From an uncultured Gammaproteobacteria bacterium (lineage in GTDB: Bacteria; Patescibacteriota; Patescibacteriia; Magasanikbacterales; UBA922), in NCBI GenBank assembly GCA_964566225.1, contig CAZMHV010000003.1, positions 6,658 to 70,657 of the forward strand: DNA of 64,000 bases. The letters run 5' to 3'. The notes beneath the pieces were generated by a model that saw only the letters and a program-made list of their open reading frames with translations, was not told the DNA's origin and made no database searches. Both the position numbers and the translations under genes were made by a program. Positions 2,985-60,220 of the stretch are shown piece after piece (position 1 is the stretch's first letter; every line of letters starts with the position of its first letter).

Positions 2985-3006
2985 CCCGACGTATAGCTAC
3001 CTATAT

Positions 3007-3378: not shown

Positions 3379-3402
3379 GGCTTTTCCTATAAGTGTTCCC
3401 AT

Positions 3403-3726: not shown

Positions 3727-3731
3727 TACCT

Positions 3732-4277: not shown

Positions 4278-4282
4278 AAGTT

Positions 4283-4468
4283 ATGGCTACTCAAGGACAA
4301 ATTGCAAAATCAAATAGAAAACCAAAATTTAGTACTCGTATAGTTCGACGATGTTTTCGTTGTGGTCGTCGACGTGGGTTCATGAGACATTTTCAGCTGT
4401 GTCGTATTTGTTTTCGTGAACTTGCCAACAGTGGGATGCTCCCTGGTGTACGAAAATCAAGTTGGTAA
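4283..4468 (+). CDS. rpsZ: 30S ribosomal protein S14 type Z (zinc-binding, 61 aa)
   Basis: 61 aa carrying a CxxC...CxxC motif ('CFRCGRRRGFMRHFQLCRIC'), typical of short S14 type Z. Confidence 0.88.
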   Translation: MATQGQIAKSNRKPKFSTRIVRRCFRCGRRRGFMRHFQLCRICFRELANSGMLPGVRKSSW

Positions 4469-4524
4469 TTAAACTATTTACTATTTAATAATAGAAATCA
4501 AAAGTTAAATAAAGTATTAATCTT

Positions 4525-4914
4525 ATGATGACGGATCCAATTGCAGACATGCTTACCCGTATTCGAAACGCTCAGGCTTCACGCAAGCGTTCTCTTGAGA
4601 TTCCTTTTTCAAAATTAAAAATGAAAATTGCGGAAATTTTGAAAAAAGAAGGTTTTATCGGAGAAATCAGTAAAACAGAAGCAATGCCTGCAATGCTTGT
4701 GGTTGAACTTAAGTATAGTGGAAAGATTCCTGCTATTCAGGCTATTAAACGTGAAAGTAAACCAGGACACCGCATGTATCGAAAAGCTGAAGAAATGCCA
4801 AATATTTTGAATGGCTATGGTTTGGCTATTGTTTCTACTTCAGAAGGATTAATGACTGGTAAAGAAGCCAAGAAAAAAGGTATCGGTGGTGAAGTTATTT
4901 GTTCTGTATATTAA
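4525..4914 (+). CDS. rpsH: 30S ribosomal protein S8
   Basis: 'DPIADMLTRIRNA' S8 signature. Confidence 0.9.
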   Translation: MMTDPIADMLTRIRNAQASRKRSLEIPFSKLKMKIAEILKKEGFIGEISKTEAMPAMLVVELKYSGKIPAIQAIKRESKPGHRMYRKAEEMPNILNGYGLAIVSTSEGLMTGKEAKKKGIGGEVICSVY

Positions 4915-4922
4915 AATTTTGT

Positions 4923-5459
4923 ATGTCACGTATTGGAAAAAAGACAATTCAAATTCCTGCGGGAGTTACCATGGAACAAAAAGATAAAGTGGTAACCGTA
5001 AAAGGTCCAAAAGGTACATTGACTCGTGTAGTAAGTCCTTTGGTCACTGTGAATATTGCTGGTTCTGAAGCGACTGTTGATGTTGTGAATAAAGAAGATA
5101 AAAAAGAACGATCACTCTGGGGAACTTTTGCTGCCCACCTTCAAAATATGGTAGAAGGAGTTACTCAAGGTTTCAAAAAACAACTTGAAGTAAATGGAGT
5201 AGGTTACCGTGTTGCTATGCAAGGAAAAGATTTGAAGCTCGAACTCGGATTTTCTCACTCTGTGGTATTCAAAATTCCAGAAGGAATGACTGCTTCAGTA
5301 GAAAAGAATATGATTACACTTGAAAGTAGTAATATTGAATTACTTGGACAAACCGCTTCTGAAATTCGATCACTTCGTAAACCTGAACCATATAAAGGAA
5401 AAGGAATTAAATACGCTGAAGAAGTAATCCGTCGCAAGGCAGGAAAAACTGCAAAATAG
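4923..5459 (+). CDS. rplF: 50S ribosomal protein L6
   Basis: 'MSRIGKKTIQIP...' L6 N-terminus. The ORF-track start at 4899 overlaps rpsH, so the internal ATG at 4923 is preferred. Confidence 0.85.
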   Translation: MSRIGKKTIQIPAGVTMEQKDKVVTVKGPKGTLTRVVSPLVTVNIAGSEATVDVVNKEDKKERSLWGTFAAHLQNMVEGVTQGFKKQLEVNGVGYRVAMQGKDLKLELGFSHSVVFKIPEGMTASVEKNMITLESSNIELLGQTASEIRSLRKPEPYKGKGIKYAEEVIRRKAGKTAK

Positions 5460-5495
5460 TAGTTTGACGAGATCACCCTAAAATACTATATTATT

Positions 5496-5870
5496 ATGAG
5501 TAAAGTAACTCTCACAAAACAAGACAAAAGAAACAGACGACGTAATCGCGTTCGTAAAGTTGTAATTGGAAGCATGATTCGTCCACGTTTGAATGTATTT
5601 CGCTCTTTGCGAGGTATGTTTGCGCAAATTATTGATGATAACACCAGTAAAACATTGGTGAGTGTTCACTCAAAATCTGACGCAGCGTCAGGAGATGCAG
5701 GAGAACGATCTGGAAAAGTTGCTGTGAGTTACAAATTAGGACTTCGTCTTGCTGAAAAAGCTAAAGAAAAAGGAATTACTGCCGTTGTTTTTGATCGAGC
5801 GGGCTACCGTTTTCACGGTCGTGTGAAAGCTGTTGCCGATGGGGCTCGCGATGGCGGACTTCAATTTTAA
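5496..5870 (+). CDS. rplR: 50S ribosomal protein L18
   Basis: 124 aa, L18-like with basic N-terminus and '...AVVFDRAGYRFHGRVKA...'. Confidence 0.88.
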   Translation: MSKVTLTKQDKRNRRRNRVRKVVIGSMIRPRLNVFRSLRGMFAQIIDDNTSKTLVSVHSKSDAASGDAGERSGKVAVSYKLGLRLAEKAKEKGITAVVFDRAGYRFHGRVKAVADGARDGGLQF

Positions 5871-5905
5871 TGTTACTTAGAGCATTCCATTAACTTAACA
5901 TCTGT

Positions 5906-6556
5906 ATGCAAGGTAAAGGAAAAGGTAATAAAATGAAACCAAAAAAAGAACGACCTGAGTTTGATCAGCATATTGTTGATTTGGCTCGTGTTACTCGTGT
6001 GACCGAAGGTGGAAAACATTTAAGTTTTCGTGCCTGTGTGGTTATCGGAGACCGCAATGGTCGTGTTGGATTTGGTGTTGAAAAAGGACCAGATGTGCAG
6101 ATTGCTGTGGAAAAAGCAGTGAACCAAGCAAAAAAGAACATTATTCGTGTTCCTCTTGTAAGTGAATCAATCCCACATCGTGTGGAAGCCAAATATAAAG
6201 CAGCCAAAGTAATGCTCAAACCAGCTCCAAAAGGTTCTGGAGTTATTGCTGGAAGTGCGATTCGTGTTATTTTGGAAATGGCTGGTGTACCAAATGCATC
6301 TTCAAAAATGCTTGGAAAAACCAGTAATAAAATTGCCAATGTAAAAGCCGTTTTTCAAGCATTACAATCATTTAATTACCGATCACTCAATGGACGCAAG
6401 CAAAAAGAAAGAGTTGATGCTGATGTAACTGTTCCAGAAGAAAAAGTAGAAGCTTTGAAAGCAAAGACCGGTATTCAAGATGATGCTCCTCAAGCAAAGA
6501 CAGCTGCTAAACCAGCAGCTCGTACTGTGCGAAAGGCAGCTCCCAAAAAAGCCTAA
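5906..6556 (+). CDS. rpsE: 30S ribosomal protein S5 with Ala/Lys-rich C-terminal extension
   Basis: S5 core ('...GDRNGRVGFG...GSGVIAG...') plus an extension of about 50 aa. Followed directly by rplO with no rpmD (L30). Confidence 0.88.
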   Translation: MQGKGKGNKMKPKKERPEFDQHIVDLARVTRVTEGGKHLSFRACVVIGDRNGRVGFGVEKGPDVQIAVEKAVNQAKKNIIRVPLVSESIPHRVEAKYKAAKVMLKPAPKGSGVIAGSAIRVILEMAGVPNASSKMLGKTSNKIANVKAVFQALQSFNYRSLNGRKQKERVDADVTVPEEKVEALKAKTGIQDDAPQAKTAAKPAARTVRKAAPKKA

Positions 6557-38730: not shown

Positions 38731-40293
38731 TTAGTGAGTGGTTATATTTTTAAAACGTGATAATAGTTCAGTTCCATTTAATAGGTTTCTCCATTCTACA
38801 GTTCTGAACGCGTCCAGCAAGGGGAGCATGGCTGGACGTTCCTTATATTCAGCGAGTGCCTGAAGGGGACTTCTTAGCTCAAATAAAAGGTTTTTACCTC
38901 TCAACTGTAAGTTCTGAAATACAAAGTTGAGTATTTGGCGTTTCTCTTCGATTTCAGAACTTTTGAAAATGTCAGAAGCTCTTTGTGCTAAAGAAAGAAG
39001 CTGTGTTGCGCTGAGGCTATAGTTTTCATCTGCATTTGTGTGGTCTTCTAGTTGAAGCTCAATATCTCGTTGCTTTTCTTTGATCTGTTTGAATTTTTTA
39101 TCATAGACGTCCTTAGTAATACTACGGTCGAGCATAAAGTCAAGTAGGGTATCAGATTGTGCTTGAAGGGCGTCATATTCGTTTCTAAGCGTGTTTACAG
39201 CCTGAGAGTGATATTTACTCTTTGTTTCGTTCATCGTGTGTATTTTAGCCGTAATTTCTGCCACTTGTATATCTGAAAGTTGGATACTATTGAATGCCTC
39301 ATAAACAGGTTTTAAGAGATCATTTTCATTTACATAGATACGTTTGCAAGTATATTTTGAGTTTGTACAACTATAATGGTTATATATCTTTTTGTGTCGC
39401 TCAGCGGTAACTCGACAACCACAGTTGGCACATGAAATAAGTCCTTTAAAGATAAAGGGGTGTGAGATTGATTTAAACGGAGTCTTTTTCTTTGATAAGC
39501 GTATTTTTGTAGCTTGTTCAAAAGTATAGCGAGAGATAATTGGCTCGTATTTATGTGGATAGGGTTTAGTTTTAGAGATCATCGTTCCACAATAGAAAGG
39601 ATTTTTCAATATACATTCAATCATGCTTTTGGAGAGTATTTTCCCATTAGCACTTTTTAATCCTTCTTTTTCCATTATATTTTTTATATCAAGCATTGAT
39701 GTGGTGCCAGATATGTACAGATCAAAAATCTTTTTTATATATTGCCTTCGAGATTCATCGACTATAATATCTCGTTGATTTTTTTCTTCACCAATATTGA
39801 GGTAGCCAATAGGTGCTCGGCCTATCCATTCGCCGTTTCGTAGTTTTTGTTCGTAAGCACGTTTAACATTATCACTGATTGCGTCAGAGTAGTATTTTGC
39901 TAGGTGTAGATTCATTCCAAAGTGAAATTTTTCTGTTGCAGAGGTTTTTTGATCTATGACAAGATTTTCAGATGTAAAGTGCAACTCAATTTTTCCTTGT
40001 TGAGCCATTTCGTATAAAAGGGGAACACGCTTGTCAAAGACATTGCGTGAAAGACGATCCACCTTATCAAAGCAGACAGCAACTGTTTCCTTTTGGTTTT
40101 TAAGATATTCAAGAGCTTTATCAAATTCGTCTCGTTTTTGTTTATACGCACTTTCGTCAAAGACAAACTGTTTATCTATTTTTAATCCTTTTCTATCACA
40201 ATAATCCTCGAGTCGTTTAACTTGAGCGGGTAGAGAGTTACCAGCTTCTTTTTGTTCTTCGGTAGAGACTCGTGCTAGAATTATCGATTTCAT
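38731..40293 (-). CDS. Large serine recombinase, copy 2 (native attP-spanning C-terminus, 520 aa)
   Basis: Identical to copy 1 except for the C-terminal tail ('...LPLLDAFRTVEWRNLLNGTELLSRFKNITTH'), which is encoded across the element-element junction. Confidence 0.85.
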   Translation of the reverse strand: MKSIILARVSTEEQKEAGNSLPAQVKRLEDYCDRKGLKIDKQFVFDESAYKQKRDEFDKALEYLKNQKETVAVCFDKVDRLSRNVFDKRVPLLYEMAQQGKIELHFTSENLVIDQKTSATEKFHFGMNLHLAKYYSDAISDNVKRAYEQKLRNGEWIGRAPIGYLNIGEEKNQRDIIVDESRRQYIKKIFDLYISGTTSMLDIKNIMEKEGLKSANGKILSKSMIECILKNPFYCGTMISKTKPYPHKYEPIISRYTFEQATKIRLSKKKTPFKSISHPFIFKGLISCANCGCRVTAERHKKIYNHYSCTNSKYTCKRIYVNENDLLKPVYEAFNSIQLSDIQVAEITAKIHTMNETKSKYHSQAVNTLRNEYDALQAQSDTLLDFMLDRSITKDVYDKKFKQIKEKQRDIELQLEDHTNADENYSLSATQLLSLAQRASDIFKSSEIEEKRQILNFVFQNLQLRGKNLLFELRSPLQALAEYKERPAMLPLLDAFRTVEWRNLLNGTELLSRFKNITTH

Positions 40294-40306
40294 ATGCTTT
40301 GTATTG

Positions 40307-43135
40307 TTAACTTGTCAATAGCTTCTTCTGAAAATCTATTGCAAAGTCGCCTTCGCCACGAGTATCAGAGTTATAGAACTTTATGCCGATTGGCTTTATT
40401 ACTTTGTAGCCGTGCTTACTCATTTCAGCTAGATAATCTTTGTAGGCCTGCTTGTCGTTTTCGCCTGCATCAAACACAACATCACTGTCATCGTTCAGAC
40501 TTATCAAGGCTTCTTCTTTCCAAGCGTCTTGTGCTAGCAAGTGACCACCCTTCGGCTCAATAATTACCTGATAATACAGTTCGTTGCGAGCCACATCATT
40601 GATGATGAGTACATAGTCTGGGCTAAACCTACGACCATCTTTTATGTTATATAGCCAATAGTCCAGTTCGTTACGAATAAGATATATTTCAGCACCTTCG
40701 TATCTAGTGTGTAAGTCGGCAATCTGGCTCGCTAAATATTTCACGAAGCGTTTTTCTTCACTTGTGCCATAGTTTTCACTATACGCATACCAGTCAGCAT
40801 CTTTTATGTTGAACTGTAATTCAGGGTTGTCGTGGTCGCTTTGAGCTTTAGCACGTTCATCAGAACTTATAAACACCTTTTCGCCCGTTACTGGGTCAAC
40901 GGATGGAAACGACATCAAATAAATGTCCTTTTCTTTGCTAAACACCTGCGATAATGACACTGGACGGAACTTGTTGCTACCAGCTTCACGTGGCATATAA
41001 ATATCTATTCGCCTACGGACTTCTGGCAATATCGCACCAACTAGCAGTTGGAGTTTTTCTTGAGCGTTTAGCGAGCCAATATCTTTACCGTCTTCGTAGG
41101 TATAAGTAATTGCGTATTTCGGCAGGTATTTGTTCATCAGTTCATCAACCGTTTGTAGTTCGGGTATATGATGACGTAGGTTGTTGAATCGGAAGAAGTT
41201 GGCTTCGGCACATACCAACGCTTTGCGAATTATTGGTTCCGCAAAGAACTCATCGGTAATGCGTATAACTTTGGTTTTCTGACTCGCAATTTGTTGATTT
41301 TGCTCGTAATCGTTCAAAGCCCTTGCTCGCAGGTTATACAAGCCCGCTTTGATGGTGCGATTGAAGGTAGTGTCAATTTCTTCGTCAGTTGTTTTGTTGC
41401 GTTTTGTCGTGTGGTTGACCAGCACAAATCCTTTTTTATACGTTTCGCTTTCTAAAAAGTGTTGTTTGAGTGTAATGGTCTTCTGTTCAATACCTTCATT
41501 AATAATACCTTCGCCCAGCAAATCACGTTGTAAGTTTTCTAGAAACATACCCGTTTTTACAAAGTGATACACGAAAGTTTCCAGCACACGCCCACGTTCA
41601 AACGGTGCTTTATCAAATTTACGCTTGTACTTATCAAACTCTATATTTCGCTGTGTAAATTCAAATGTTTGGTTCTCTCTTTCGTCTGGCTTATACGAGC
41701 TTGGTAGTTCATAAGGGAAATACCTAGCCCCACGCCCAATCAACTGAATATCTTGTAACGACACCTTCTTGGCTTCACTAATATCAAAGTGAATAATGTC
41801 GTATAAACTCAATACGTCCCATCCTTCATTCAGAGCATTGACGCTAAATATGGCACGAATGGTGTTTCGTTGACTGTCTAACAGTGGCAATAGCTCGGCT
41901 TTTTCTTTCTTCTGACTGTTATATATCAACGTGTTGTCATGTGCAAAGCTTGCTCGTATTTCGCTAACAAACTTATTTAGTCCATCCCAATCGCCTTGTG
42001 TTACAAAGCCATTTTTAGGCTCCCTCAGCCAATCAAACAAATCTTTTAATATCTCGTGTTCACGATTGTTGTTTTCTTGACCCAATTCTTTTAGGTGGTT
42101 CAAATCTTCTGGTCGCAAACTACTTATGACAGTATCAAAAAATGCACGGTCTTCTTCGCTTTGTGCGATTTTGACAGACTTTATCAACACCACAGGCTTC
42201 ATCTCTACGCCCATTTCACGCTGAGCAAGCAATCTACGATATTCGCTTAACACTACGGCATTGACTATCAGTAGGCGTTTTTGGTCTTCAGTGTGAACCT
42301 CTTTGTTGTATAGGAACTTCACGTCTTTGCTATACCTATCACGATTGAACTCCAAGAAATCGTAACGATGAACGAGCTTATCGCTATATTTAGTATGTAT
42401 TGCTTCATTCGCCAAATCTACGGTTGCAGTATATTCAAGTAATAAGTTTTCTTCACGAGCCTTAACTGCCTTCATCACAGCAGTTTCCCAATTTCGCACT
42501 TCTTCTATATCGCCTTTATTTTTACTGCGAGTATCTACGTTCAAACGGTGGGCTTCATCGGCAATAATCACCACGTTGTTATCGGCAAAATCTTGAGCTG
42601 TTAGTCCATTTTCTTTGTCTTCAATTAGATGGTTATACAGCAGTGAAGTGCTAAAAAACATAAAGTTGATAGCATTACGATCTGCGTCCGCTATACTTGG
42701 CACAGCTTTTATACCTACATTACGCCCATTTATTTTGACGCCTTTTGGGTTGAACAAATATTTTTCAAACTTGTAATCGGTAAAGTTTTTGAGCGCTTGG
42801 TCTTTAATTTGTATTTGATGGACTAAAAATAGGAAGTTGCGGTAGCCTTGTGCGTATAGATACAGTACTACAGACGCCATTACGAGCGTTTTCCCAGTTC
42901 CAGTCGCCATATTGAACAGCACATGCTTGGCTTTTGCCCTGTCGCTTTCATACAGCCAAATAAAGTGTTTCAAGGCTCGCACTTGGTACTCACGCAGGGT
43001 TTTGCTCAAATTGTCCGTGATATATTCAGGCACAATAAATGAGCGTTCCCATATTTGGTAGGTAGGGTTGTTTTCTATTTGGTTGAATAGAAAATCGCCT
43101 AATGTTGCATTGATTTTAGTTTTCGTTTTCACCAT
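40307..43135 (-). CDS. res: Type III R-M restriction subunit Res (copy 2)
   Basis: Identical to 30989–33817. Confidence 0.85.
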   Translation of the reverse strand: MVKTKTKINATLGDFLFNQIENNPTYQIWERSFIVPEYITDNLSKTLREYQVRALKHFIWLYESDRAKAKHVLFNMATGTGKTLVMASVVLYLYAQGYRNFLFLVHQIQIKDQALKNFTDYKFEKYLFNPKGVKINGRNVGIKAVPSIADADRNAINFMFFSTSLLYNHLIEDKENGLTAQDFADNNVVIIADEAHRLNVDTRSKNKGDIEEVRNWETAVMKAVKAREENLLLEYTATVDLANEAIHTKYSDKLVHRYDFLEFNRDRYSKDVKFLYNKEVHTEDQKRLLIVNAVVLSEYRRLLAQREMGVEMKPVVLIKSVKIAQSEEDRAFFDTVISSLRPEDLNHLKELGQENNNREHEILKDLFDWLREPKNGFVTQGDWDGLNKFVSEIRASFAHDNTLIYNSQKKEKAELLPLLDSQRNTIRAIFSVNALNEGWDVLSLYDIIHFDISEAKKVSLQDIQLIGRGARYFPYELPSSYKPDERENQTFEFTQRNIEFDKYKRKFDKAPFERGRVLETFVYHFVKTGMFLENLQRDLLGEGIINEGIEQKTITLKQHFLESETYKKGFVLVNHTTKRNKTTDEEIDTTFNRTIKAGLYNLRARALNDYEQNQQIASQKTKVIRITDEFFAEPIIRKALVCAEANFFRFNNLRHHIPELQTVDELMNKYLPKYAITYTYEDGKDIGSLNAQEKLQLLVGAILPEVRRRIDIYMPREAGSNKFRPVSLSQVFSKEKDIYLMSFPSVDPVTGEKVFISSDERAKAQSDHDNPELQFNIKDADWYAYSENYGTSEEKRFVKYLASQIADLHTRYEGAEIYLIRNELDYWLYNIKDGRRFSPDYVLIINDVARNELYYQVIIEPKGGHLLAQDAWKEEALISLNDDSDVVFDAGENDKQAYKDYLAEMSKHGYKVIKPIGIKFYNSDTRGEGDFAIDFQKKLLTS

Positions 43136-44831
43136 AGAACTTCTCGGTTAGTGCCTTTTCATCTTTCGATACTGTGTGCCGTGTATCGTTCATATCGGCG
43201 TAATTTAGGTATAGCTGGTTTTCGTCTAGTATGTCGGCAAGTGCCTGCTTGCGACCAGCCAAATCAAGCTTGCGAAAGTTTTCGTCTTTTTCAAACTCGG
43301 CACGGTCAAACCAGAACTTCAAGAAGGCGTTGTTACGCATATCTACATACAGGTTTTCCAGTTCTTTGATACTCGTGGCTTCCATAATAGCGTCAATATA
43401 TTCTTGGTTGTATTTCTTCAACTCAAAGTAAACAAACGAGGTGTTGCTGTAATACTTTTTTATGGCATTTTCTAAACGCTTGAAGGTAACGTTATTTACA
43501 TAGTCCATCTGTTCAATCAAGATGAACTTACGACTACCACCATCTTCGGCATTTTGAGCCATCACAGCCTGTGCGGTAGTGCCTGAACCACCAAAAAAGT
43601 CCAGCACGATGTCATCGGGCTCAGTGCTGATTTGTATACTGTCTTTGACCATAGCAACTGACTTAGGGTAACTAAATACTTTGCCACCAATCATGTCTTT
43701 CAAGTCGCTAGTCCCCGTTGTTCCAGAGTATTCAGGTCTAAACCAAAGCGATTTTGGTCGTTCTCCCTTTATACGAAGTTTAGTGTATATTTTATATTCG
43801 CCATTGACTTTTCTTACTTCCGTTTCGGTTTTCCATTTTTCCATAAGTGTATCTCTGCCCCAACGCCATCTTCGTTCAATTCCATTACTATCAATCGGTA
43901 GCATTTCAACACCGTTTTCAGATTTTGAGATAGACACTTCTTTTGTGTCGGGGTCGTAATAGACAGGGTAAAAAAGATTTGGTCGGTCTTCTCGCCGTGA
44001 GCCATCACCACTACGCTGTAATGGTATGCTTTTATATTTACTTATTTCATCTTCTTGCGGGTAACTGCTTGAATTATCAAAGTTGAAGTCTTTAATTTTT
44101 GCGTATTTGGCATTTTTAGCATATACAATCTTATTCTCGTGTGCGGGCGAAAAAAACTCGTTATATCTTCCCTTTAAATTATGGACAACAGCAAGCACAC
44201 CAAGCCTATTTTCATAACCAAAAATCTCGTCAGCCAAAACGCCCAAATAAAACAATTCGTAGTGGTCAATATCTATAAAAATCATACCATCTTCGGTCAG
44301 CAACTCTTTGGCTACTTCAAGTCTGTTTTTCATAAATGTAAGCCACGAACTGTGATTGAAGTTATTGTTATAGGCAAAGGTGTTGGCGTCCGTGCGGGTA
44401 TTGTAAGGCGGGTCAATATAAATGAACTTAACTTTGCCCGCTAAGCGTTCACGCAGGGTATAAAGTGCTAACAGGTTGTTGCCCTTGATAAGCAGGTTTT
44501 GTTTTAGATTGTCGTCTTCGTCAAAAAACTGAATATCGCTATCGGCGGTCAGTGCCTTTTCTCCGTCTTTGTCTATAAGGCGAAAGTCAGTTAGAACCTT
44601 CGGTTCTTCTAGTGTGTCTATATCTTTACTATCTAGCGTTTGATGTAAAAAGCGTTCATCACGCCCTACATCTTCTTTGCTCATACCCGCTTCCAGCACA
44701 GCGTCCTTGAACGGAAATGATAACACTACATCGTTATCGTTTTTGATAAAACTGCCCTTACTCGTACTGACCAACCCTATCTTATTCGGATATTGCGTAT
44801 ATCTTCCTTTTTTAGATGAATTATTTGTCAT
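43116..44831 (-). CDS. mod: Type III R-M Mod methyltransferase (copy 2)
   Basis: Identical to 33798–35513. Confidence 0.85.
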   Translation of the reverse strand: MTNNSSKKGRYTQYPNKIGLVSTSKGSFIKNDNDVVLSFPFKDAVLEAGMSKEDVGRDERFLHQTLDSKDIDTLEEPKVLTDFRLIDKDGEKALTADSDIQFFDEDDNLKQNLLIKGNNLLALYTLRERLAGKVKFIYIDPPYNTRTDANTFAYNNNFNHSSWLTFMKNRLEVAKELLTEDGMIFIDIDHYELFYLGVLADEIFGYENRLGVLAVVHNLKGRYNEFFSPAHENKIVYAKNAKYAKIKDFNFDNSSSYPQEDEISKYKSIPLQRSGDGSRREDRPNLFYPVYYDPDTKEVSISKSENGVEMLPIDSNGIERRWRWGRDTLMEKWKTETEVRKVNGEYKIYTKLRIKGERPKSLWFRPEYSGTTGTSDLKDMIGGKVFSYPKSVAMVKDSIQISTEPDDIVLDFFGGSGTTAQAVMAQNAEDGGSRKFILIEQMDYVNNVTFKRLENAIKKYYSNTSFVYFELKKYNQEYIDAIMEATSIKELENLYVDMRNNAFLKFWFDRAEFEKDENFRKLDLAGRKQALADILDENQLYLNYADMNDTRHTVSKDEKALTEKFYGENEN

Positions 44832-44834
44832 AAT

Positions 44835-45200
44835 TTATTGGGTACTTACTTGTTTTAAAAATGTATCAAACTCTTTTTGATCAATTCTGTATTCTTTACC
44901 AATTTTATATGCTGTTAATTTTCCAGCTTTGATATAACGATAAATGGTCATCGGGTTAACCCTTAGTTTATTTGCTAGTTCTTCTACTAAGTAAAAGTCA
45001 TTTTTATTTTCTTGTTTTGACAGATCTATTTTTACTATAGGAGCTTCTTGGTTATTTTTAGGAATTGGTTTATAAACCAGTTTTACCAACTGTAAAAGTT
45101 TATGTGCCTGTTGAAAGGCATCGTCCTTGGATAATCTTTCGCCAAACTGTTCCTCGTATAACTTTTGAAACTCTTCTAGAGCTTTATCATCTATTTTCAT
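44835..45200 (-). CDS. Excisionase-family HTH protein (copy 2)
   Basis: Identical to 35517–35882. Confidence 0.6.
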   Translation of the reverse strand: MKIDDKALEEFQKLYEEQFGERLSKDDAFQQAHKLLQLVKLVYKPIPKNNQEAPIVKIDLSKQENKNDFYLVEELANKLRVNPMTIYRYIKAGKLTAYKIGKEYRIDQKEFDTFLKQVSTQ

Positions 45201-45241
45201 ATGTTTATAGTTAATGTAATTATACTTTACTTTGGTTTACA

Positions 45242-46363
45242 TTACAAACTGAGTTTATAGGGCTCAAAAGTGGATAACTCTTTTTCAATATCTTGAACAA
45301 AACCATGGGTATTTATGGGGAAAGGAGGGGATTTAAAACGTGCCAAGTCTCTTTTAACGTCATTCCAATCTGCCTTGGGTCTATAAGAAGCCACAATAGT
45401 CCTGAGTTGTCTCATTCCTTGGTCTTTGGCTAATAAATTAAAGCCTACAGCCTTAACGGCTTGTTTTATGCTTAGTGTTGGGTCGTGGTGAAGTGTCCTT
45501 TTAAGGATAGAAAGTGGATTCGTATCCATATCAAGTACAAATTTGTTATTATCGTTAAAAAAGTCAGACCAATATTTTTGAAGGATGTTTTGGGAACGTT
45601 CATGGCTTAGGATATCTTTAAGGGTAGGATTTTGTTTATAGCCAAGTTTGAATAATGTCTTGTTTACGTATTTTTTGGTGGAAAGGCGTATTTCAATTCG
45701 TAATAATTTGTGAGATATTATCGAGTTTTTTACTTTGTCAAAAAGAGAAAGTTGTTTATCAGTTTTATCTTGATCCATTGAACGTTTTTGAGGCCTTGGT
45801 ATATCTGCAAACTTGTCGTACATAACAAAAGAATGTGAGTTAGTATAAAACTGGTAAGCATACCCTTCGTTACGAAAGTCGGCCTTATTTGTATCCATAC
45901 GTTTGGATATGTCAATTTTTGCAAGTTCCTGTATGGCGAGGGTGGCTGTGTATCCGTCAGACAAAGGTATATTCTTTCCTACGTGAAAGGCTACAACTGG
46001 AGCCTCTAAAAGATGATCTGTGAGTATCATAACTCCACGTTCAAACATTCTTTTCCTTAAGGTATCTATTGCTTTTGTATAGTCTTCTTGAGTATATTCG
46101 TTTATATTTTCACCGTCGTTTATGAGCTTTGGGATAGAGCATTCTACTTTCAAAACACGTGTTTGGGCATAGTATTGTGTCGTATAGAGTGTCATGCGTG
46201 GATAGTAATGACTTTCTTTTTCCTGTTTGCTCGGGTTATTTTTGAAGTTGGTTCCAGGGAAAAATCTAAGACTCCCAACGCCATCTGTTGGAGGTGAAAA
46301 TTTATCGTGGTGCATTATTTGATAACGTCCCCAAGGAATGAGGAATATAACAGTATCTACCAT
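45242..46363 (-). CDS. Hypothetical element protein (copy 2)
   Basis: Identical to 35924–37045. Confidence 0.35.
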   Translation of the reverse strand: MVDTVIFLIPWGRYQIMHHDKFSPPTDGVGSLRFFPGTNFKNNPSKQEKESHYYPRMTLYTTQYYAQTRVLKVECSIPKLINDGENINEYTQEDYTKAIDTLRKRMFERGVMILTDHLLEAPVVAFHVGKNIPLSDGYTATLAIQELAKIDISKRMDTNKADFRNEGYAYQFYTNSHSFVMYDKFADIPRPQKRSMDQDKTDKQLSLFDKVKNSIISHKLLRIEIRLSTKKYVNKTLFKLGYKQNPTLKDILSHERSQNILQKYWSDFFNDNNKFVLDMDTNPLSILKRTLHHDPTLSIKQAVKAVGFNLLAKDQGMRQLRTIVASYRPKADWNDVKRDLARFKSPPFPINTHGFVQDIEKELSTFEPYKLSL

Positions 46364-46391
46364 ATCATTACATCTTTTGGGCCTTACAATT

Positions 46392-46652
46392 TTATATAAT
46401 TTCTTTAACTTTTTTAGTGATTGCGTCTTCTATTGCTTTGCTTGTCTCTTTATCTATCGGGTGGTATATGTTAAAACTCTTTTCTGCTACTTTTTTGGTA
46501 GGATAGGTTATTCTATATCCTGAGCCATCTAGCTTAAGGTGTACGCCTATGGACCCAAGGTAGAGAGAGTTGTCTATAACTATAGAGGCCATAGCAATTA
46601 GGCCATCTTTAGGCTTTATTGGTACTATCTGTACTTCTGTTACGTTTTTCAT
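46392..46652 (-). CDS. spoVG: SpoVG-family protein (copy 2)
   Basis: Identical to 37074–37334. Confidence 0.7.
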   Translation of the reverse strand: MKNVTEVQIVPIKPKDGLIAMASIVIDNSLYLGSIGVHLKLDGSGYRITYPTKKVAEKSFNIYHPIDKETSKAIEDAITKKVKEII

Positions 46653-46836
46653 AAAGTTGTGGATTATTACGTTTATCTATTTCCCAAAGCAAAGCAAAAA
46701 ACTGAGCAAGATTTGTGATCTGTCCGTTTGTAGAGGGGATCTGGTTGTCAGTCTCTTTTGGATACATAAAACCTGATGGTGTTATCATCAGGTTATCATT
46801 GCTTTACATTTGAAGATAAGAAGTTAGTGACCCACG

Positions 46837-47658
46837 TTAAATTTCTTTTGATCTTCTTTGTTTTTCGAGTTGAATGAGTTTGGTTATTTCGTGATAAATC
46901 AAGCCATTTTTAGGAAACTTTTCATTAAGCTTTTCTTTGATCTTTTTTGCGGGAAGTGTCTTGTTTTCCCAGATAAAATCAATCATTTCTTGGCTATGTT
47001 TTCTTTTTCGTATTTTAAAGGCTTTTTCTTGATATAAAGTTTGAGCATTTTCAATCCATTTCCACCTTTTTTCAATATAATCTAAAACATCTCTTTTTGA
47101 AGCTTTTTGATTTATACAAATAGCTATTGGATAAGAAGCAAGCATCAACTGACGTTTTGTATTAAGATATATAATTTCTTCACCTTTATTGGCTGGATTT
47201 AATTCATCATCACAAAAATCAACTAACTGACACATATCCACGATCGAACCCGCTTGAAGAGACAACTGAGGATAGGGATCGGTCTCGTCGATTAACGCCT
47301 TAGCAAACATGAGAAGATCCAGGTCAAGTCCATATTTGGAAGCTATCTTTTCTTCTTGAATAAAATACTTAGTTCTTAAAAGCTTTTTACATCTTTTGCG
47401 CAATAACTCGTATCCCTTGATAATAAAGTCAAACTCATTGTTAAAATCGTTATGTCTTTTCTTTTGTTCTGGTGTATAGGTATCAAAATTTCCACTGCCA
47501 TCTAAAGCATTCTGTTTTTTTTCAAATTGTCGCAACTTCTTGATATCTTTACGAAAGTTTTTATTTCTAATCAGGTCTTCAATGTAACGAAGCATTTTAT
47601 TTGTCCCTTGGGTAGGGGGCCAGCTATGACCTTCTTCAGCTATTTTTACACTTTTCAT
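46837..47658 (-). CDS. Hypothetical protein (copy 2)
   Basis: Identical to 37519–38340. Confidence 0.5.
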   Translation of the reverse strand: MKSVKIAEEGHSWPPTQGTNKMLRYIEDLIRNKNFRKDIKKLRQFEKKQNALDGSGNFDTYTPEQKKRHNDFNNEFDFIIKGYELLRKRCKKLLRTKYFIQEEKIASKYGLDLDLLMFAKALIDETDPYPQLSLQAGSIVDMCQLVDFCDDELNPANKGEEIIYLNTKRQLMLASYPIAICINQKASKRDVLDYIEKRWKWIENAQTLYQEKAFKIRKRKHSQEMIDFIWENKTLPAKKIKEKLNEKFPKNGLIYHEITKLIQLEKQRRSKEI

Positions 47659-48145
47659 ATTCTTTACAATTGTTAAGTATTGTAAAGAATAACAGAATTT
47701 GGTATAAAATTAAAGTGAAAGTAGTCCTTTATAATGAACTGGCGGCACTGTTGTGGGCTTTTTATATCGTTACGTCACTTTAGCCGTTCCCGATAGGAAC
47801 TGTATGGTTCTTATCTTGGAACGGGCTAAAAGTCGAACGTTTCTATTTATTCAGTCTGTATTTGACTTTTCTATGAAAAATAGAATGACAAGTAAGAGTG
47901 TCGCTCGTAAAGCTTCAGGGCTTTTACGAGCTAGTGTTACCAAGACTGTGAAAGCAGTTGCTGGTAGTGCTCTTTCTCAGAGGGCTCCTAAAAGAGCGAC
48001 TCGGAAATAACTCTTAAAACTTGCCGCCAGTTTATTGTAAATGAATTTTTAGTGAGTGGTTATATTTTTAAAACGTGATAATAGTTCAGTTCCATTTAAT
48101 AGGTTTCTCCATTCTACAGTTCTGAACGCGTCCAGCAAGGGGAGC

Positions 48146-48742
48146 TGAATCGGCCATCACTAACTCCCTAACGGGTACGGTGGTGGCTTTTTTTGTTTCA
48201 TTGGGCAGAACGTTTACCCAATTTTCAGCGTGAAGGGCAGAACTCGAATTTTGAACGAAATCAATTGAATTGGGCTCTGTAACAAATGAAATTTTAATGG
48301 TTTGAGGGGAATAATTAATTTTTTGAATTGTTCGTTTCGCCAATAAATTGCTGCTCTGTCCCGTTTCGGTTTTTACCTTTGAAATAAACGATTGAAGTGT
48401 CTGAGTGACCATTTCAGGTGTGAGTTGGGATTGACTTGGACTGAGTTCGAGCCCTGCCTGGCCACCAATAGACTCATTTTTTAGTCTAAAGACAAAACTC
48501 TCGACATATTCTTTATCCACAGCAATTCTTCCCAGATTTTCTACGATATATTGTTCAAGCCTTTCAGCACTCACTTGTTTAGTGCTGCATGCCTCCCAAT
48601 CTCGTTTTGTAACACTACTACATCGATAATAATTATACCTCTTCATTTTGCCTTCTCTCCATTTGTTTGTGAAACACCCTGACATATATGCACCACATTC
48701 CGTACAGGTGATAAGCCCTCCGAAAAGATAATGTTTGAACAA
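48146..48742 (-). pseudogene. Remnant of a related large serine recombinase (zinc-ribbon plus coiled-coil C-terminal half only)
   Basis: 'LFGGLITCTECGAY...YNYYRC' parallels 'FKGLISCANCGCRV...YNHYSC' of the intact integrase. The N-terminal catalytic domain is absent. The ORF tail (to 48086) runs into element end sequence. Confidence 0.5.
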
Positions 48743-53886: not shown

Positions 53887-54282
53887 TTAGTAGATTTTTG
53901 GATGAATCAGGCCAAGACGAAAATGTTGACCATAAGATTCAAAAACTTTAAAACTGCCAAATCTTCTCCGTATAGAAGAGCAATATAACAATATAATTGT
54001 ACAGGAGAAAACCGTTACTGAGAAAATGAAAAAAGAGGTATATAAATTTAATATCTTAAAAAAATTCGGCACCACCACTTTAATAAAATGACCTGTTTCA
54101 TTTGCTTCAGTCACTAAACTACAACAGTTCGTATTATCATCACTATTCACGTATGCCTGAAAAGGCAAAGAAGTTCCATGTAACCAAGTACTGAAAAAAA
54201 CATGCGTTATTGATTTACAAAAAAACGCTATACTGAGTATAATTATCCCTATAGAAAAAATTTTGAATAGCTTCATAGTCAT
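53887..54282 (-). CDS. Hypothetical membrane/secreted protein
   Basis: 131 aa, hydrophobic N- and C-termini, no motif. Confidence 0.4.
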   Translation of the reverse strand: MTMKLFKIFSIGIIILSIAFFCKSITHVFFSTWLHGTSLPFQAYVNSDDNTNCCSLVTEANETGHFIKVVVPNFFKILNLYTSFFIFSVTVFSCTIILLYCSSIRRRFGSFKVFESYGQHFRLGLIHPKIY

Positions 54283-54411
54283 TCTTTAAGGACAATTATA
54301 TCGTAAAACCGTTTATAAATCAACAGGCAGCCTCCATTACATTTTTATATTCTAGTTAAAATAAAAACAACAACGGTTAGCGTTGTTGTTATATAAATTA
54401 CACTGAACGTT

Positions 54412-55353
54412 TTAAATCCGCCCATCTTTAACAAGTCTCCAATAATGGTAGCCTAAAGCTGTAAGCTTACACGATTTTGAGTTTTGTGCTGCGAAATACA
54501 TAAATTCTTCGTCAACAGGAATAACTAATCCCACGCTTTGAAATTTTTGCAAGTGTTTAAAGATTGCTACATTTTCTGGTTTTGCAATTTCTTTATTTGT
54601 ATCTTCAAATGTGGGATCCAAAGGGAATTGAAATTCTGGAGCAGGAAAGTAAGTTGTTATCTTTCGTAACTTTTCTAAAGGTACAGGTGGCTGGATTTCT
54701 CTTAAAGATGTGAACTGAGTTACATTGGTTTTAAAGATAGGTCGTTGATCCCATGGACCTAATGCTTGGTCAATATGAGCGTAGACGCTTCCAGGTGTAA
54801 TATGTCCTCTTAAATCTGCTGCTCCTCCATGTAGGGCACTTAAAAGTAAATTTGTAAAAATTCCATGTCCATTAACTTCTGCCGCGGTTTCATTATCTCG
54901 GCACGCAGTCAATACCGTAGTCCCTTCTTTTATTTGAGTTGTTGCACCACCTGAAACAGCTGGGGAACCAAAAGCACCCGAATTACAGCAGTCTAGAATA
55001 ATTATCTTATTTTTTACCATTGATTCGTTTGCAAGGATAAGAATGTTGTCCATTGATATGCCGACATCGTGTTCTTGGTGATCCGGTGTTACTATAAAAC
55101 CGCCTAACTCGTCTAACATTCCGTGGCCAGAAAAATATAATAAAGAAGCGTCACCATCTCCCTTAAACAACTCTTTGATCATCCCCAGTAGCTCATTCTT
55201 TTTTTGGATGTCAGTTTTTAGAACAACGGAAAAATTTGGTGATCCATCTCCATTTCTTTCTAAAATACTTGAAAGTGCAATTGCGTCATTAACGCAACCT
55301 GCTAGGGGTTTGCTTGAATATTGGTTTATGCCAACGATGAGTGCCTTTTTCAT
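54412..55353 (-). CDS. Caspase-like peptidase (C14 / metacaspase-like) with uncharacterised C-terminal domain of about 110 aa
   Basis: 'ALIVGINQYSSKPLAGCVNDAIAL', catalytic dyad context 'YFSGHG' (His) and 'IIILDCCNSG' (Cys). Lies 4 nt downstream of the TIR-like gene on the same strand. Confidence 0.7.
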   Translation of the reverse strand: MKKALIVGINQYSSKPLAGCVNDAIALSSILERNGDGSPNFSVVLKTDIQKKNELLGMIKELFKGDGDASLLYFSGHGMLDELGGFIVTPDHQEHDVGISMDNILILANESMVKNKIIILDCCNSGAFGSPAVSGGATTQIKEGTTVLTACRDNETAAEVNGHGIFTNLLLSALHGGAADLRGHITPGSVYAHIDQALGPWDQRPIFKTNVTQFTSLREIQPPVPLEKLRKITTYFPAPEFQFPLDPTFEDTNKEIAKPENVAIFKHLQKFQSVGLVIPVDEEFMYFAAQNSKSCKLTALGYHYWRLVKDGRI

Positions 55354-55356
55354 AGT

Positions 55357-55746
55357 TTATGCTCGGTCAACCAGGTCTTTAACATTTTGCCACGTCCAAA
55401 CATAATATCCATTAAGTCCGGCTGGACGAGGACAAGTTTTATCTTTATAACCTTGTATGCCGTAGACGGGTTTGCCAGCTTCATTCGCCATGTCAATTTC
55501 GGCTTTAACCCCGCTACAGGTAGAAGTTTTTTCTCCAACCATTACAAGCACTAAATCACACTTTTTAATTTTTGTTAAACATCTTTCTTTCCAAACACTT
55601 TGATTCCAGGGCTGCTTTACAGACCAGTCCTCCATATCAAAGGGCGAACCTTCATTTTTTGCTTGACCGATAAGTGAAGTTCTTAGGAATTCATCATTAT
55701 CAAAGTCAAAACTTACGAACACCTTCTTTTTTTGTAGAGTATACAT
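55357..55746 (-). CDS. TIR-like domain protein (DUF1863/MTH538 ThsB-like)
   Basis: 'KVFVSFDFDNDEFL' N-terminal strand-loop and '...CDLVLVMVGEKTSTCSGVKAEIDMANEAGKPVYGI' resemble the TIR-like 'FISF..xD' and 'S.WV..EI..A...KPIIGV' pattern. 129 aa. Confidence 0.6.
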   Translation of the reverse strand: MYTLQKKKVFVSFDFDNDEFLRTSLIGQAKNEGSPFDMEDWSVKQPWNQSVWKERCLTKIKKCDLVLVMVGEKTSTCSGVKAEIDMANEAGKPVYGIQGYKDKTCPRPAGLNGYYVWTWQNVKDLVDRA

Positions 55747-55877
55747 AGTAAAATGAAATTAATATTTAACACTATTTGTCAAAAATTATACTATTATCAC
55801 TCTCTATAGTCAAGTGATAACTTTTTAAAAAACAGCCCAATAAATAAGCTGCTTTTTGGCGTGCCCGAGCGTTGATA

Positions 55878-57422
55878 TTAAGAAGAAGTGGGAGTATTAG
55901 TTTCATCTGTAGGAATAACTTCTGATATGTTAGAAGTTATCCCAGTCCCTAATAATTGAAAAGACTCAGCCTTCGGTAACTCTTGCACATCTCGAAGTTT
56001 TCTTTCAATAGCACGAGATCGTACACCTGCCTCATCAATAACGTTGCTTGCTTCAGTAAGTTTCTTTTGCGTTTTATCTAGTATATCTCCAAAGCGACCA
56101 AACTCTGTTTTTACAGCTCCTAAGATTTCCCAAACCTCGCTTGAACGTTTTTCAATAGCCAGAGTTCTAAAGCCCATTTGCAGACTATTCAAAAATGCTG
56201 AAAGTGTAGTCGGACCGACGATAGTTACTTTAAAATCTCGCTGTAAACATTCAAATAGTCCATTACATCTTAGGACTTCAGCATACAATCCTTCAAAGGG
56301 AAGAAACATTATTCCAAAATCTGTTGTACCTGGTGGATCAATATATTTATCTCGAATATCTTTGGCAAAAGTTTTTATACGATTTGCTAACTGCTTACTA
56401 GCACTTTCAATAAGTTCTTTGTCTGACTTTTCATAGGCTTCTAGGAGTAGTTGGTAATCTTCACTTGGAAACTTAGAATCAATAGGGAGAAGTACCACTT
56501 TACTTTGATCCTCGCGACCAGGAAGTTTGATAGCAAATTCTACCATAGCATCACTACCTGCTTTGGTTTTTATATTCTTTTGGTATTGCTCAGGAGTAAA
56601 AAGTTGTTCCAGAATATTTGCTAGCTGATACTCTCCCAGTACACCTCTAGTTTTCACATTCGATAAAACTTTCTTTAAATCTCCAACTCCAGTGGCTAGT
56701 ACTTGCATTTCTCCTAATCCTTTGTGTACGAGATCAAGTTTATCTGTTACCAATTTAAAGGATTGGCCAAGCCGTGTTTCCAAAGTATGGTGGAGTTTCT
56801 CATCAACCGTAGCACGCATTTTTTCAAGCTTCTCATTGTTATCGTCCTGCATGAGTTTGAGCTTGCCTTCTACTATTTCTCTCATTTTTTCCAGTCTTGT
56901 TTCAATGGTCTGAATAAGTTCAGTCTGTTTCGTGTGGAGACTATCTAGTTTCTGCTTTTGTCCCTCATTCAGTTCTTTTATACCTGTTCCAAGAGTCGCT
57001 TCAAATGATTTGAAAGCAACCCGTAATTCATCTCTAGTGTCTTTATTTGCTTGGTTTATCTGAGTTGCAAACGAGATGAGTTGATCTTTCTGCAAAGTAG
57101 CAATATCTAACACTTGCTTGGTAAGAGAACTCCCAAATATATTGAGAGACTGGCTCAGCTCTTCTCGGGCTGTTTTATTCCCTTGAGCGGCTTCTGTACG
57201 ATTCCGAGCCAACTCATCTTTGAGGAGAATTTCAAACCTGTTTACACAGCTGTCTATATTGTCAAGAAGTCCCTTAAGCTCAGAGGAATCGCTCCCATTT
57301 TTGGCTTTCCTTAAAAGAAAAACGATATATCCACTCAAAGCCAGAGAAAGGATGGAGAGGGTAAGAGCAAGAATAGTCATATACGTCCCTATTAAGAGTA
57401 CAATAAGGAACCATGGGTACAA
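55878..57422 (-). CDS. rmuC: DNA recombination protein RmuC
   Basis: N-terminal TM, long coiled coil, C-terminal RmuC domain ('GEYQLANILEQ...'). 514 aa. Confidence 0.75.
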   Translation of the reverse strand: MYPWFLIVLLIGTYMTILALTLSILSLALSGYIVFLLRKAKNGSDSSELKGLLDNIDSCVNRFEILLKDELARNRTEAAQGNKTAREELSQSLNIFGSSLTKQVLDIATLQKDQLISFATQINQANKDTRDELRVAFKSFEATLGTGIKELNEGQKQKLDSLHTKQTELIQTIETRLEKMREIVEGKLKLMQDDNNEKLEKMRATVDEKLHHTLETRLGQSFKLVTDKLDLVHKGLGEMQVLATGVGDLKKVLSNVKTRGVLGEYQLANILEQLFTPEQYQKNIKTKAGSDAMVEFAIKLPGREDQSKVVLLPIDSKFPSEDYQLLLEAYEKSDKELIESASKQLANRIKTFAKDIRDKYIDPPGTTDFGIMFLPFEGLYAEVLRCNGLFECLQRDFKVTIVGPTTLSAFLNSLQMGFRTLAIEKRSSEVWEILGAVKTEFGRFGDILDKTQKKLTEASNVIDEAGVRSRAIERKLRDVQELPKAESFQLLGTGITSNISEVIPTDETNTPTSS

Positions 57423-57863: not shown

Positions 57864-59267
57864 GTGAACCGAATTTGGTATGGTCAATGTGAAAGTTTGT
57901 GGTTGAATTGTAACGCGAGCACTCTTTTTTGTTTTCTTTTCCTTGCTACCAATGCTATAATAAGGCAGCTTGTTTTTATTATTTTCATTGTGTCAGTGCT
58001 TTCTCTCAAACGTTTGTTTCATAGTGCCAAGGCAGATAATTTTATTACGAGCAGTATGGTGCTTTTTGCGGGGTCTGTGCTTGTAGGTGGGGTGAACTAT
58101 GTATACCAGTTTTTGATGGCTAGAATGTTGCCTGTAGATAAATATGGTGAGCTCCAGTCACTCTTGGCAATTTTAGCGGTTATCGCTGTATTTAGTAATG
58201 CTATTTCTTTTATCATTACCAAGTACAGCGCTGACTTTGCTGCAAAACAGGAGTGGCATAAAGTCTATTCTCTCGTAATTGTTTTTTCTCAAAAAATTTT
58301 TCTTGCCTCTGGGATTGGCTTGATTGTGTATGTGCTCTTGAGTGGTCACATTGCCACATTTTTAAACTTATCTTCTCGTTTTGAGGTCATTTTGCTTGCG
58401 GTAGCACTTATTTTTGGATTTACCAGTTCCGTAACCTTGGGTATTTTGCGTGGTTTAGAAAAATTTAAAGAAGTTTCCCTCATCTTATTTTGTATAGCCT
58501 TAGTGAAACTTATTTTCTCTCTTTTTTTGTTAAAATTAGGGTTATCTGTTGATGGAGCGGTAGGTGCGGTAGGAATTGCCGCGGTGGTAGGGTATGGTAT
58601 TTCTTTTTATCCTATAAAATTTTTATATGGTAAAAAAAGAGAACCTGTGGGTGGCAAAAAAATATTTATTTATTCACTTCCAGTCTTGGCTTCACTGTTA
58701 TTTACCACACTTCTTTGGAGTATGGATATGATTTTAGTAAAGCACTTTTTTGCCTCAGAAACTGCGGGGGAGTATGCTGCGCTCTCTATGCTTGGGCATA
58801 TTCTCTTTTTTGTACTTGGTCCTATTGGTTTAGTTATGTTCCCTCTGGCCGCCAAAGCTGAAGCAAATAATGAGTATCCTGCAAAGATTTTAAAAAAGGC
58901 ATTGTATTTGACGGTTATTCTGGGATTCCTCCAAATTTCTTTTTTTTCCCTTTTTCCTCAATTGGTAATTCACTTTTTAGTGAGTGATAAGTTTCTTTCA
59001 CTTGTTCCGTATGTTGGGTGGTTTACTTTTTCTATGTTGTTGTATTCATTGGTAACTCTCATATCCAGTTATTTTCTTGCCGTTGGTAAGACAAAAAGTG
59101 TATGGATTCTTTTTTTGGGTGCCTTGACACAAATTATACTCTTGGTTCTTTTTCATGATACTATGTGGAATATTGTGTGGGTTATGAATGGTTCTCTTTT
59201 GTTTACTTTAGTACTTCTTATTGGGTATTTTATTCGAATCTACTATTTATGTCCTCGCCAAAAATGA
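57864..59267 (+). CDS. Polysaccharide biosynthesis flippase (Wzx-like, MOP superfamily)
   Basis: About 12 TM segments in a typical Wzx layout. The true start may be downstream (for example 58056). Confidence 0.65.
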   Translation: MNRIWYGQCESLWLNCNASTLFCFLFLATNAIIRQLVFIIFIVSVLSLKRLFHSAKADNFITSSMVLFAGSVLVGGVNYVYQFLMARMLPVDKYGELQSLLAILAVIAVFSNAISFIITKYSADFAAKQEWHKVYSLVIVFSQKIFLASGIGLIVYVLLSGHIATFLNLSSRFEVILLAVALIFGFTSSVTLGILRGLEKFKEVSLILFCIALVKLIFSLFLLKLGLSVDGAVGAVGIAAVVGYGISFYPIKFLYGKKREPVGGKKIFIYSLPVLASLLFTTLLWSMDMILVKHFFASETAGEYAALSMLGHILFFVLGPIGLVMFPLAAKAEANNEYPAKILKKALYLTVILGFLQISFFSLFPQLVIHFLVSDKFLSLVPYVGWFTFSMLLYSLVTLISSYFLAVGKTKSVWILFLGALTQIILLVLFHDTMWNIVWVMNGSLLFTLVLLIGYFIRIYYLCPRQK

Positions 59268-60220
59268 TTTCTATAGTAGTTCCAGTTTTCAATGAAGAAC
59301 AAAATATTGTTCTTTTTTGTGATGCTTTTTTTCAAATGTGGCAAAGTCTGAAAGAAAAATATTGCTATGAACTAATTTTTGTAGATGATGGAAGTACTGA
59401 CGGTTCTGCGGAAGTACTCGAACGTTTTTCTCACCAGTATGAAAATTTGCATTTTTTGCAATTTTCGAGAAATTTTGGAAAAGAAACCGCCCTTTCTGCG
59501 GGCATTGATGCGGCACACGGGGATGCGGTTATCATGGTTGATGTGGACTTACAGCATCCACTTTCTCTGTTTCCTCAGTTTATCAAAAAATGGGAAGAGG
59601 GAGCAGAAGTGGTGGTTGGGGTGAGAGAAAAAAACTCAGGCGAGGGAATTATTAAAAAATATGGATCTATTTTGTTTTATACAATAATGGATGCTATTGG
59701 TGAAACACGAATCACTCCACGTGCCACTGACTATCGGTTGATAGATAAAAAAGTTGTAAGGGAATTTCGTCGATTTACTGAGCATTCGCGTATGACTCGA
59801 GGCCTTATTGACTGGCTTGGGTTTAAAAGGGACTATATCTCGTTTGTGGCTGACGCTCGTAGGGGAGTAGCTCCTGCACGGTATAGTAAAATTAAACTTT
59901 TGAGGCTTGCTTTGAGTACCTTTATCTCACACAGCTTGTTTCCTTTGAAGCTCGCAGGTTATTTGGGTCTTTTTATCACAACTGTTTTTGGGGGTATAGG
60001 AATCTTTTTGTTGCTTGGAAGATATGTCTTTCAAAATCCGTTTGCTCTGAGTTTTACGGGAACGGCTCAGCTGGCAATTATGATTCTTTTTTTGGTAGGG
60101 GTTATTCTGTCTTGTCTCGGTCTTGTTGCTTTGTATATTGGTACCATAAATGACGAGGTTTCAAATCGTCCACGATATGTGATTCGTAAAGATTCACGGG
60201 AATTTTACGATCAAAAGTAG
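59264..60220 (+). CDS. Family 2 glycosyltransferase, polyprenol-phosphate sugar transferase type (GtrB/DPM1-like) with 2 C-terminal TM helices
   Basis: 'ISIVVPVFNEEQNI', 'FVDDGSTDGS', 'VDVDLQHP' and C-terminal TM pair. Start ATGA overlaps the flippase stop. Confidence 0.75.
   Translation: MISIVVPVFNEEQNIVLFCDAFFQMWQSLKEKYCYELIFVDDGSTDGSAEVLERFSHQYENLHFLQFSRNFGKETALSAGIDAAHGDAVIMVDVDLQHPLSLFPQFIKKWEEGAEVVVGVREKNSGEGIIKKYGSILFYTIMDAIGETRITPRATDYRLIDKKVVREFRRFTEHSRMTRGLIDWLGFKRDYISFVADARRGVAPARYSKIKLLRLALSTFISHSLFPLKLAGYLGLFITTVFGGIGIFLLLGRYVFQNPFALSFTGTAQLAIMILFLVGVILSCLGLVALYIGTINDEVSNRPRYVIRKDSREFYDQK

Follow-up and report, generated by a model that had tools for sequence, protein, structure and literature searches.

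A short TIR-like protein is encoded next to a caspase-like protease in the 64,000-nucleotide stretch of DNA analysed here, referred to below as the window. An earlier note on this DNA had regarded the combination as undescribed and as a candidate for a new signalling or abortive-infection module. The question raised by the locus is therefore whether the pair represents a new kind of defence system or a member of a known one. The novelty claim did not survive: the operon is a further ordinary copy of an already published system, and the pairing has been known since 2024–2025. On sequence comparison we assign it, with high confidence, to type IV Thoeris.

The two genes and their products

Both ORFs were recovered as described before, lying on the same strand and arranged as an operon (Table 1). 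The junction reads TAA-ACT-ATG, which leaves a spacer of 3 nt and places the second ATG 4 nt after the stop codon. The promoter-like site precedes the start codon of the TIR gene by about 39 nt. The terminator-like hairpin begins 21 nt past the stop codon of the caspase gene and is the sole such site within positions 54200–56000. With promoter-like and terminator-like sites on its flanks, the pair gives the impression of a self-contained transcription unit. The operon is compact (1.4 kb) and apparently intact, it belongs to a low-GC organism, and its closest homologues come from Patescibacteria.

Table 1. Coordinates of the operon, its flanking signals and neighbouring features (numbering of the window)
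Feature	Position	Strand	Remarks
thsB-like TIR gene	55357..55746	minus	129 aa, ATG start; predicted phage sensor and signal synthase
Caspase-like protease gene, whole	54412..55353	minus	313 aa, ATG start
Caspase N-terminal Peptidase_C14 domain	54754..55353	minus	residues ~1–200; Pfam
Caspase C-terminal domain	54412..54753	minus	residues ~201–313 plus stop codon; family-specific, presumed signal-binding module
Promoter-like site	55785..55813	minus	TTGACT, 17-nt spacer, TATAAT; consensus scan, 11/12 positions; pattern match only
Intrinsic-terminator-like hairpin	54366..54390	minus	10-bp stem and T-rich tail
RmuC	55878-57422		next gene upstream of the operon
131-aa hydrophobic ORF	53887-54282	minus	no family match; just downstream of the terminator
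Putative integrated mobile element	38731-48742		
Large serine recombinase	38731-40293		in mobile element
Type III restriction subunit	40307-43135		in mobile element
Type III methylase	43116-44831		in mobile element
HTH_17 excisionase-like protein	44835-45200		in mobile element
Two ORFs without Pfam match	45242-46363, 46837-47658		in mobile element
Recombinase remnant	48086-48742		218 aa, Zn-ribbon domain only; in mobile element

The TIR-like nature of the small protein had been proposed from its sequence, and profile searches bear this out. The protein matches the Pfam family ThsB_TIR (PF08937) with an E-value of 3.5e-7 and 31 bits at a cut-off of 21.2, and the PADLOC ThsB models with an E-value of 1e-11. 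Compared with PsTIR, the validated TIR protein of Pseudomonas sp. 1-7, it shows 37% identity across 122 of its 129 residues (E=4e-20). The catalytic residue E79 of PsTIR aligns with E83 of the window protein, the predicted catalytic glutamate, whose codon is located at 55500..55498. This residue is invariant in 82 caspase-adjacent TIRs from related loci. EcTIR, the TIR protein of the E. coli 328 system, is barely alignable, with 27% identity over 41 aa only. Searching the PDB by sequence yielded two bacterial TIR structures, 8FZ9 and 8WCF; 8FZ9 has a single citation, in a preprint about the BcTir/Tpr system of B. cereus.

Below the cut-offs the protein also matches Nuc_deoxyrib_tr (23.6 bits, cut-off 28.8) and DUF4062, whose folds are related to TIR. 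These weak matches would suit a reading without any functional relation between the neighbouring genes, the small protein being a Rossmann-like enzyme, for example one resembling nucleoside 2-deoxyribosyltransferase, and the caspase a housekeeping or otherwise regulated protease. This is opposed by ThsB_TIR being the sole Pfam match above its curated cut-off and by the full-length homology to PsTIR; the linkage of the two genes, described below, weighs still further against it.

The protease matches Pfam Peptidase_C14 (PF00656) over residues 2–198 with an E-value of 2.3e-19. The motif SGHG starts at residue 75 and contains H77 (codon 55125..55123), and DCCNSG starts at residue 121 and contains C122 and C123, with the codon of C123 at 54987..54985. 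H77 and C123 are invariant both in an alignment of 12 sequences including the E. coli and Pseudomonas references and in one of 62 sequences built from database homologues, in agreement with the intact His/Cys dyad reported earlier. C123 aligns with the single cysteine of ILDSCHSG in the caspase of a Pseudomonas plasmid. Database searches returned more than 7,400 caspase homologues at E<=1e-3, the best 120 of which share 66–100% identity over the full length, well outside what chance would give. Within this set the clade of the window protein is highly conserved, spanning Patescibacteria and Bacteroidota, judged by source names, at 66–73% identity. The NCBIfam model for EACC1-associated caspases (NF047832) was matched with 106.3 bits, below its curated threshold of 140, and the match is limited to the protease domain. 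The structural neighbours of the caspase are an Arg/Lys-specific paracaspase and metacaspases, which is suggestive only with regard to arginine specificity.

The extra C-terminal part, noted before as lacking recognisable similarity, indeed gave no match in the Pfam, NCBIfam or PADLOC models for residues ~199–313. It aligns throughout with the type IV Thoeris caspases of E. coli and P. aeruginosa and contains many invariant columns, for instance Q203-R204-P205, F207-K208, L268-Q269, C295 and L297-T298. R218, R230, K266, H303 and W305 are invariant as well. Structure prediction of the full-length caspase with AlphaFold2 and the 62-sequence alignment resulted in a mean pLDDT of 88 and a pTM of 0.83, with values of 91–97 in the C-terminal domain. 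When this domain was folded alone (residues 203–313, positions 54412-54747, 23-sequence alignment) the pLDDT dropped to 46. The domain being confidently modelled only within the full-length protein, its fold may depend on packing against the protease domain. A PDB sequence search with the caspase returned only the yeast metacaspase Yca1 (E ~6e-4); type IV Thoeris effectors were not among the matches. As no solved type IV effector structure was found, the receptor role of this domain has the status of a hypothesis in the reference system too.

Comparison with type IV Thoeris and other caspase-like effectors

Type IV Thoeris was described by Rousset et al. (bioRxiv 10.1101/2024.10.24.620036; cited as Science 387:510-516, 2025) as a system that pairs a short TIR protein with a caspase-like protease and protects E. 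coli from phage T6 by abortive infection. Defence is lost with either PsTIR E79Q or PsCaspase C129A. The protease is activated by small molecules from infected cells in which the TIR protein is expressed, and PsCaspase is also activated by the divergent EcTIR. Once active it is promiscuous and cuts many proteins after arginine. N7-cADPR was determined as the signal and the C-terminal domain was hypothesised to be its receptor (bioRxiv 10.1101/2024.10.24.620036). In later work the effector has been named ThsE. For detection the same authors used a MacSyFinder rule that combines a caspase profile with ThsB (PF08937) or TIR_2 (PF13676) and allows at most one intervening gene. The window locus fits this rule, as its two genes lie on the same strand with the 3-nt spacer and the TIR protein matches PF08937. 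Several Parcubacteria and Nomurabacteria genomes as well as Algoriphagus faecimaris DSM 23095 are listed in Table S1 of that study (bioRxiv 10.1101/2024.10.24.620036), so that the pairing had already been surveyed in Parcubacteria when it was taken to be new.

We compared the window proteins with members of this family. The coding sequences of PsTIR and EcTIR were taken from Table S2 of the same preprint (bioRxiv 10.1101/2024.10.24.620036). An E. coli locus was recovered by means of the EcTIR DNA and a Pseudomonas plasmid locus by means of the PsTIR protein. The homology of the window caspase to the family thus rests on three proxies, the neighbour of EcTIR, the Pseudomonas plasmid protein and the protein of a Table S1 genome, and not on PsCaspase itself. 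EcTIR DNA is present with 100% identity in 14 complete E. coli genomes. In strain 165 (NZ_CP020509) the identical gene is followed after 10 nt by a 321-aa "caspase family protein", to which the window caspase is 46% identical (residues 1–313 against 1–321, E=3e-99). On the P. aeruginosa plasmid a TIR gene whose product is 70% identical to PsTIR precedes a 330-aa caspase, with 47% identity to the window caspase from end to end (E=3e-105). The third proxy, from Algoriphagus faecimaris DSM 23095 (L036), is 62% identical and has TIR ORFs on both sides.

The system of Pseudomonas sp. 1-7 (PsTIR and PsCaspase) has the same gene order as the window operon, with the TIR gene first and the caspase gene within a few nt, and PsTIR is of similar size (123 aa against 129 aa) with its catalytic glutamate aligned. 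Unlike that system, the window operon resides in a low-GC, Patescibacteria-like host, and identity between the two is moderate. The E. coli 328 system (EcTIR and EcCaspase) is likewise a two-gene operon, and the similarity of the EcTIR-adjacent caspase includes the C-terminal domain, whereas EcTIR belongs to a TIR subfamily different from that of the window TIR. The copy in E. coli is carried by a prophage as a moron, whereas the window copy is chromosomal and lies beside rmuC. In strain 165 the operon (L001, 4001-5378) is located in a prophage between a holin/endolysin/Rz lysis cassette and the Q antiterminator. The interval between lysis cassette and Q antiterminator is a classic moron position. 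On the P. aeruginosa plasmid CP136985, a 547-kb IncP-type plasmid, the TIR-caspase pair (L003, 4001-5374) is found where an inverted duplication of the conjugation genes trbF-trbG-trbI-DUF2274 has its junction.

Among other Thoeris systems, types I and II share with the window operon a ThsB-type TIR protein as sensor and signal synthase and abortive infection by a signal-activated effector. Their effector ThsA is a SIR2-SLOG NADase or a Macro-transmembrane protein forming a membrane pore, whereas the window operon encodes a caspase-like protease in this role. SIR2, SLOG and Macro domains are absent from the neighbourhood of the operon, where the adjacent genes encode the caspase, RmuC and the 131-aa ORF. 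Caspase-fold executioners of immunity are also known from PCaspase of type III-B CRISPR-Cas (SAVED-CHAT cascade) and from CHAT/Craspase. PCaspase is promiscuous too and probably directed to arginine. The window caspase falls outside CHAT/Craspase, which is characterised by a CHAT domain (PF12770) and an association with type III CRISPR or SAVED. The eukaryotic C14 proteases MALT1 paracaspase and the metacaspases, which cut after Arg or Lys, show about 22% identity and differ in having other accessory domains and no regulation by a nucleotide signal.

Neither PADLOC 2.0.0 (2023) nor NCBIfam holds a model of type IV Thoeris, PADLOC offering only a generic "caspase" model and the ThsB models, and therefore no curated profile confirms the assignment. 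Since PADLOC 2.0.0 has no label for the system, scans relying on such libraries will keep flagging it as "new". The system, its signal, the activity of its effector and its wide distribution including Parcubacteria have all been published, and the discovery value of the window copy is accordingly small.

Linkage and divergence of the pair across genomes

Co-occurrence of the two genes, proposed in the earlier note as a check, was examined in species-representative genomes. The scan returned at least 511 relatives of the caspase, and the best 80 loci, with 54–72% identity over the full length, were used. They span Patescibacteria, Bacteroidota, Bacillota, several classes of Proteobacteria, Planctomycetota, Verrucomicrobia and methanogenic archaea. 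A TIR-like ORF on the same strand adjoins the caspase gene in 76 of the 80 loci. In three of the four exceptions the caspase gene lies at a contig end, hence an adjacent TIR is present in 76 of 77 informative loci. With a stricter count, admitting only direct phmmer matches to four known TIRs, the number is 70 of 80. Adjacency kept up across bacterial and archaeal phyla effectively refutes the notion of functionally unrelated neighbours, which we consider next to impossible.

The pair also travels together between genomic contexts. A caspase with 91% identity to that of the window (P0002, JGI sample 3300059473) keeps a 129-aa ThsB_TIR partner and is flanked by genes for RNase III and a CN-hydrolase. 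Since the same pair is here accompanied by wholly different flanking genes, the cassette appears to move as a unit. The opposite strand of the same contig encodes, about 2 kb downstream, a 484-aa SEFIR/TIR_2 protein, which may be a second TIR-based system.

Multiple TIR-like ORFs were observed at many of the related loci. In L006, L008, L013, L014, L019, L031, L033, L035, L036 and L041 two to four of them surround one caspase gene. L014, L031 and L041 (~2545-6463) have three upstream TIR-like ORFs each; in L014 and L031 a downstream ORF of 462–504 aa matches an iterated TIR profile, the corresponding downstream match in L041 being 210 aa. Table S1 of Rousset et al. (bioRxiv 10.1101/2024.10.24.620036) contains a column "additional TIR".

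The fourth exception to the linkage is an apparent orphan, a type IV Thoeris-like caspase of a Chitinophagaceae MAG (L056, 4001-4972), with no TIR ORF detected within 4 kb on either side. That a caspase can occur elsewhere without a detectable TIR partner would fit the possibility that the window operon is a decayed or silent copy which no longer works. In the window, however, both ORFs are full length in comparison with their homologues, the catalytic and invariant residues are all intact, and promoter-like and terminator-like sites are present. We judge decay to be highly improbable.

The two proteins differ widely in their degree of conservation. TIR proteins adjacent to the caspases (L004-L083) are 26–46% identical to the window TIR, with one at 73%, as compared with 54–72% for the caspases. 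Such a gap would fit a fast-evolving sensor combined with a conserved effector, and it is in keeping with this that the divergent EcTIR can activate PsCaspase. The window copy confirms that conservation across phyla is strong for the effector and its C-terminal domain, while the TIR sensor diverges. The invariant C-terminal residues could guide mutagenesis of the presumed signal-binding site.

The same divergence bears on whether the architecture is retained with another function. If the TIR product were an ADPR conjugate or a cADPR isomer other than N7-cADPR, or if the protease differed in specificity, the operon would be a functional variant of type IV. In favour of such a variant, the window TIR reaches just 37% identity with PsTIR and is hardly alignable to EcTIR, its counterparts elsewhere are far more divergent (mostly 26–46%) than the caspases, and bacterial TIRs are known from the literature to produce several kinds of signal. 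EcTIR and PsTIR, however, also differ greatly from one another, and metabolites made by EcTIR still activate PsCaspase, so that a different signal does not follow from TIR divergence. Moreover, the window protein has its presumed receptor domain, with many invariant residues, conserved in common with its E. coli and Pseudomonas homologues. We regard the variant as unlikely. Little more credence is given to the related idea that the clade of the window protein is a functional sub-type, adapted to another TIR product in place of N7-cADPR or, in a reduced-genome, Patescibacteria-like host, to a trigger that model phages have not shown.

Proposed mechanism and genomic context

As a type IV Thoeris system the window operon would be expected to act as follows. 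Upon phage infection the 129-aa ThsB-type TIR protein would convert NAD+ to a cyclic ADP-ribose isomer, by homology most likely N7-cADPR, with Glu83 as the catalytic residue; given a TIR identity of 37%, another product could also be made. The signal would then bind the conserved C-terminal domain of the 313-aa caspase, probably across a dimer, and binding would switch on the His77/Cys123 active site. The activated protease would cut many cellular proteins after arginine, translation factors included, and this bulk proteolysis would stop the cell and abort phage replication. Both N7-cADPR signalling and arginine-specific proteolysis are attributed to the window system by homology. The earlier idea of a TIR-made signal acting through a C-terminal sensor on a caspase as abortive-infection effector agrees with the experiments on this family.

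The locus had also been described as having other defence and mobile features, namely rmuC and a Type III R-M element 6 kb away. RmuC is indeed encoded directly upstream of the operon. The Type III R-M genes (40307-44831) are about 9.6 kb away, and it is only the nearest edge of the putative mobile element, the recombinase remnant, that comes within about 5.7 kb. RmuC is a general recombination protein. Beyond the 131-aa ORF downstream of the operon lie genes for DsbB, an M14 peptidase, a probable cation-efflux protein and DsbA-like proteins. We rejected a "defence island" as evidence, since the stretch between the operon and the R-M element is occupied by ordinary membrane, redox and other genes (DsbA/DsbB-like, cation-efflux, M14 peptidase); with these genes intervening and RmuC being of general purpose, the argument is weak. 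The R-M genes have a GC content of about 40% in surroundings of about 35%. The operon, at 35–37% GC, matches its flanks and shows no anomaly, so that composition gives no evidence of recent acquisition.

The 131-aa ORF next to the terminator has a promoter-like site of its own (54323..54295). An ORF at the same position, called with 129 aa, is found in a Logan contig of the same sequence (L084). Since it is absent next to the cassette with the 91%-identical caspase, it is probably not part of the system. On the plus strand, two long ORFs with GTG start codons (57864-59267 and 59165-60220) overlap by about 100 nt. One encodes a polytopic membrane protein and the other, judged by eye, a glycosyltransferase-like protein, and their GTG starts have probably been annotated too far upstream.
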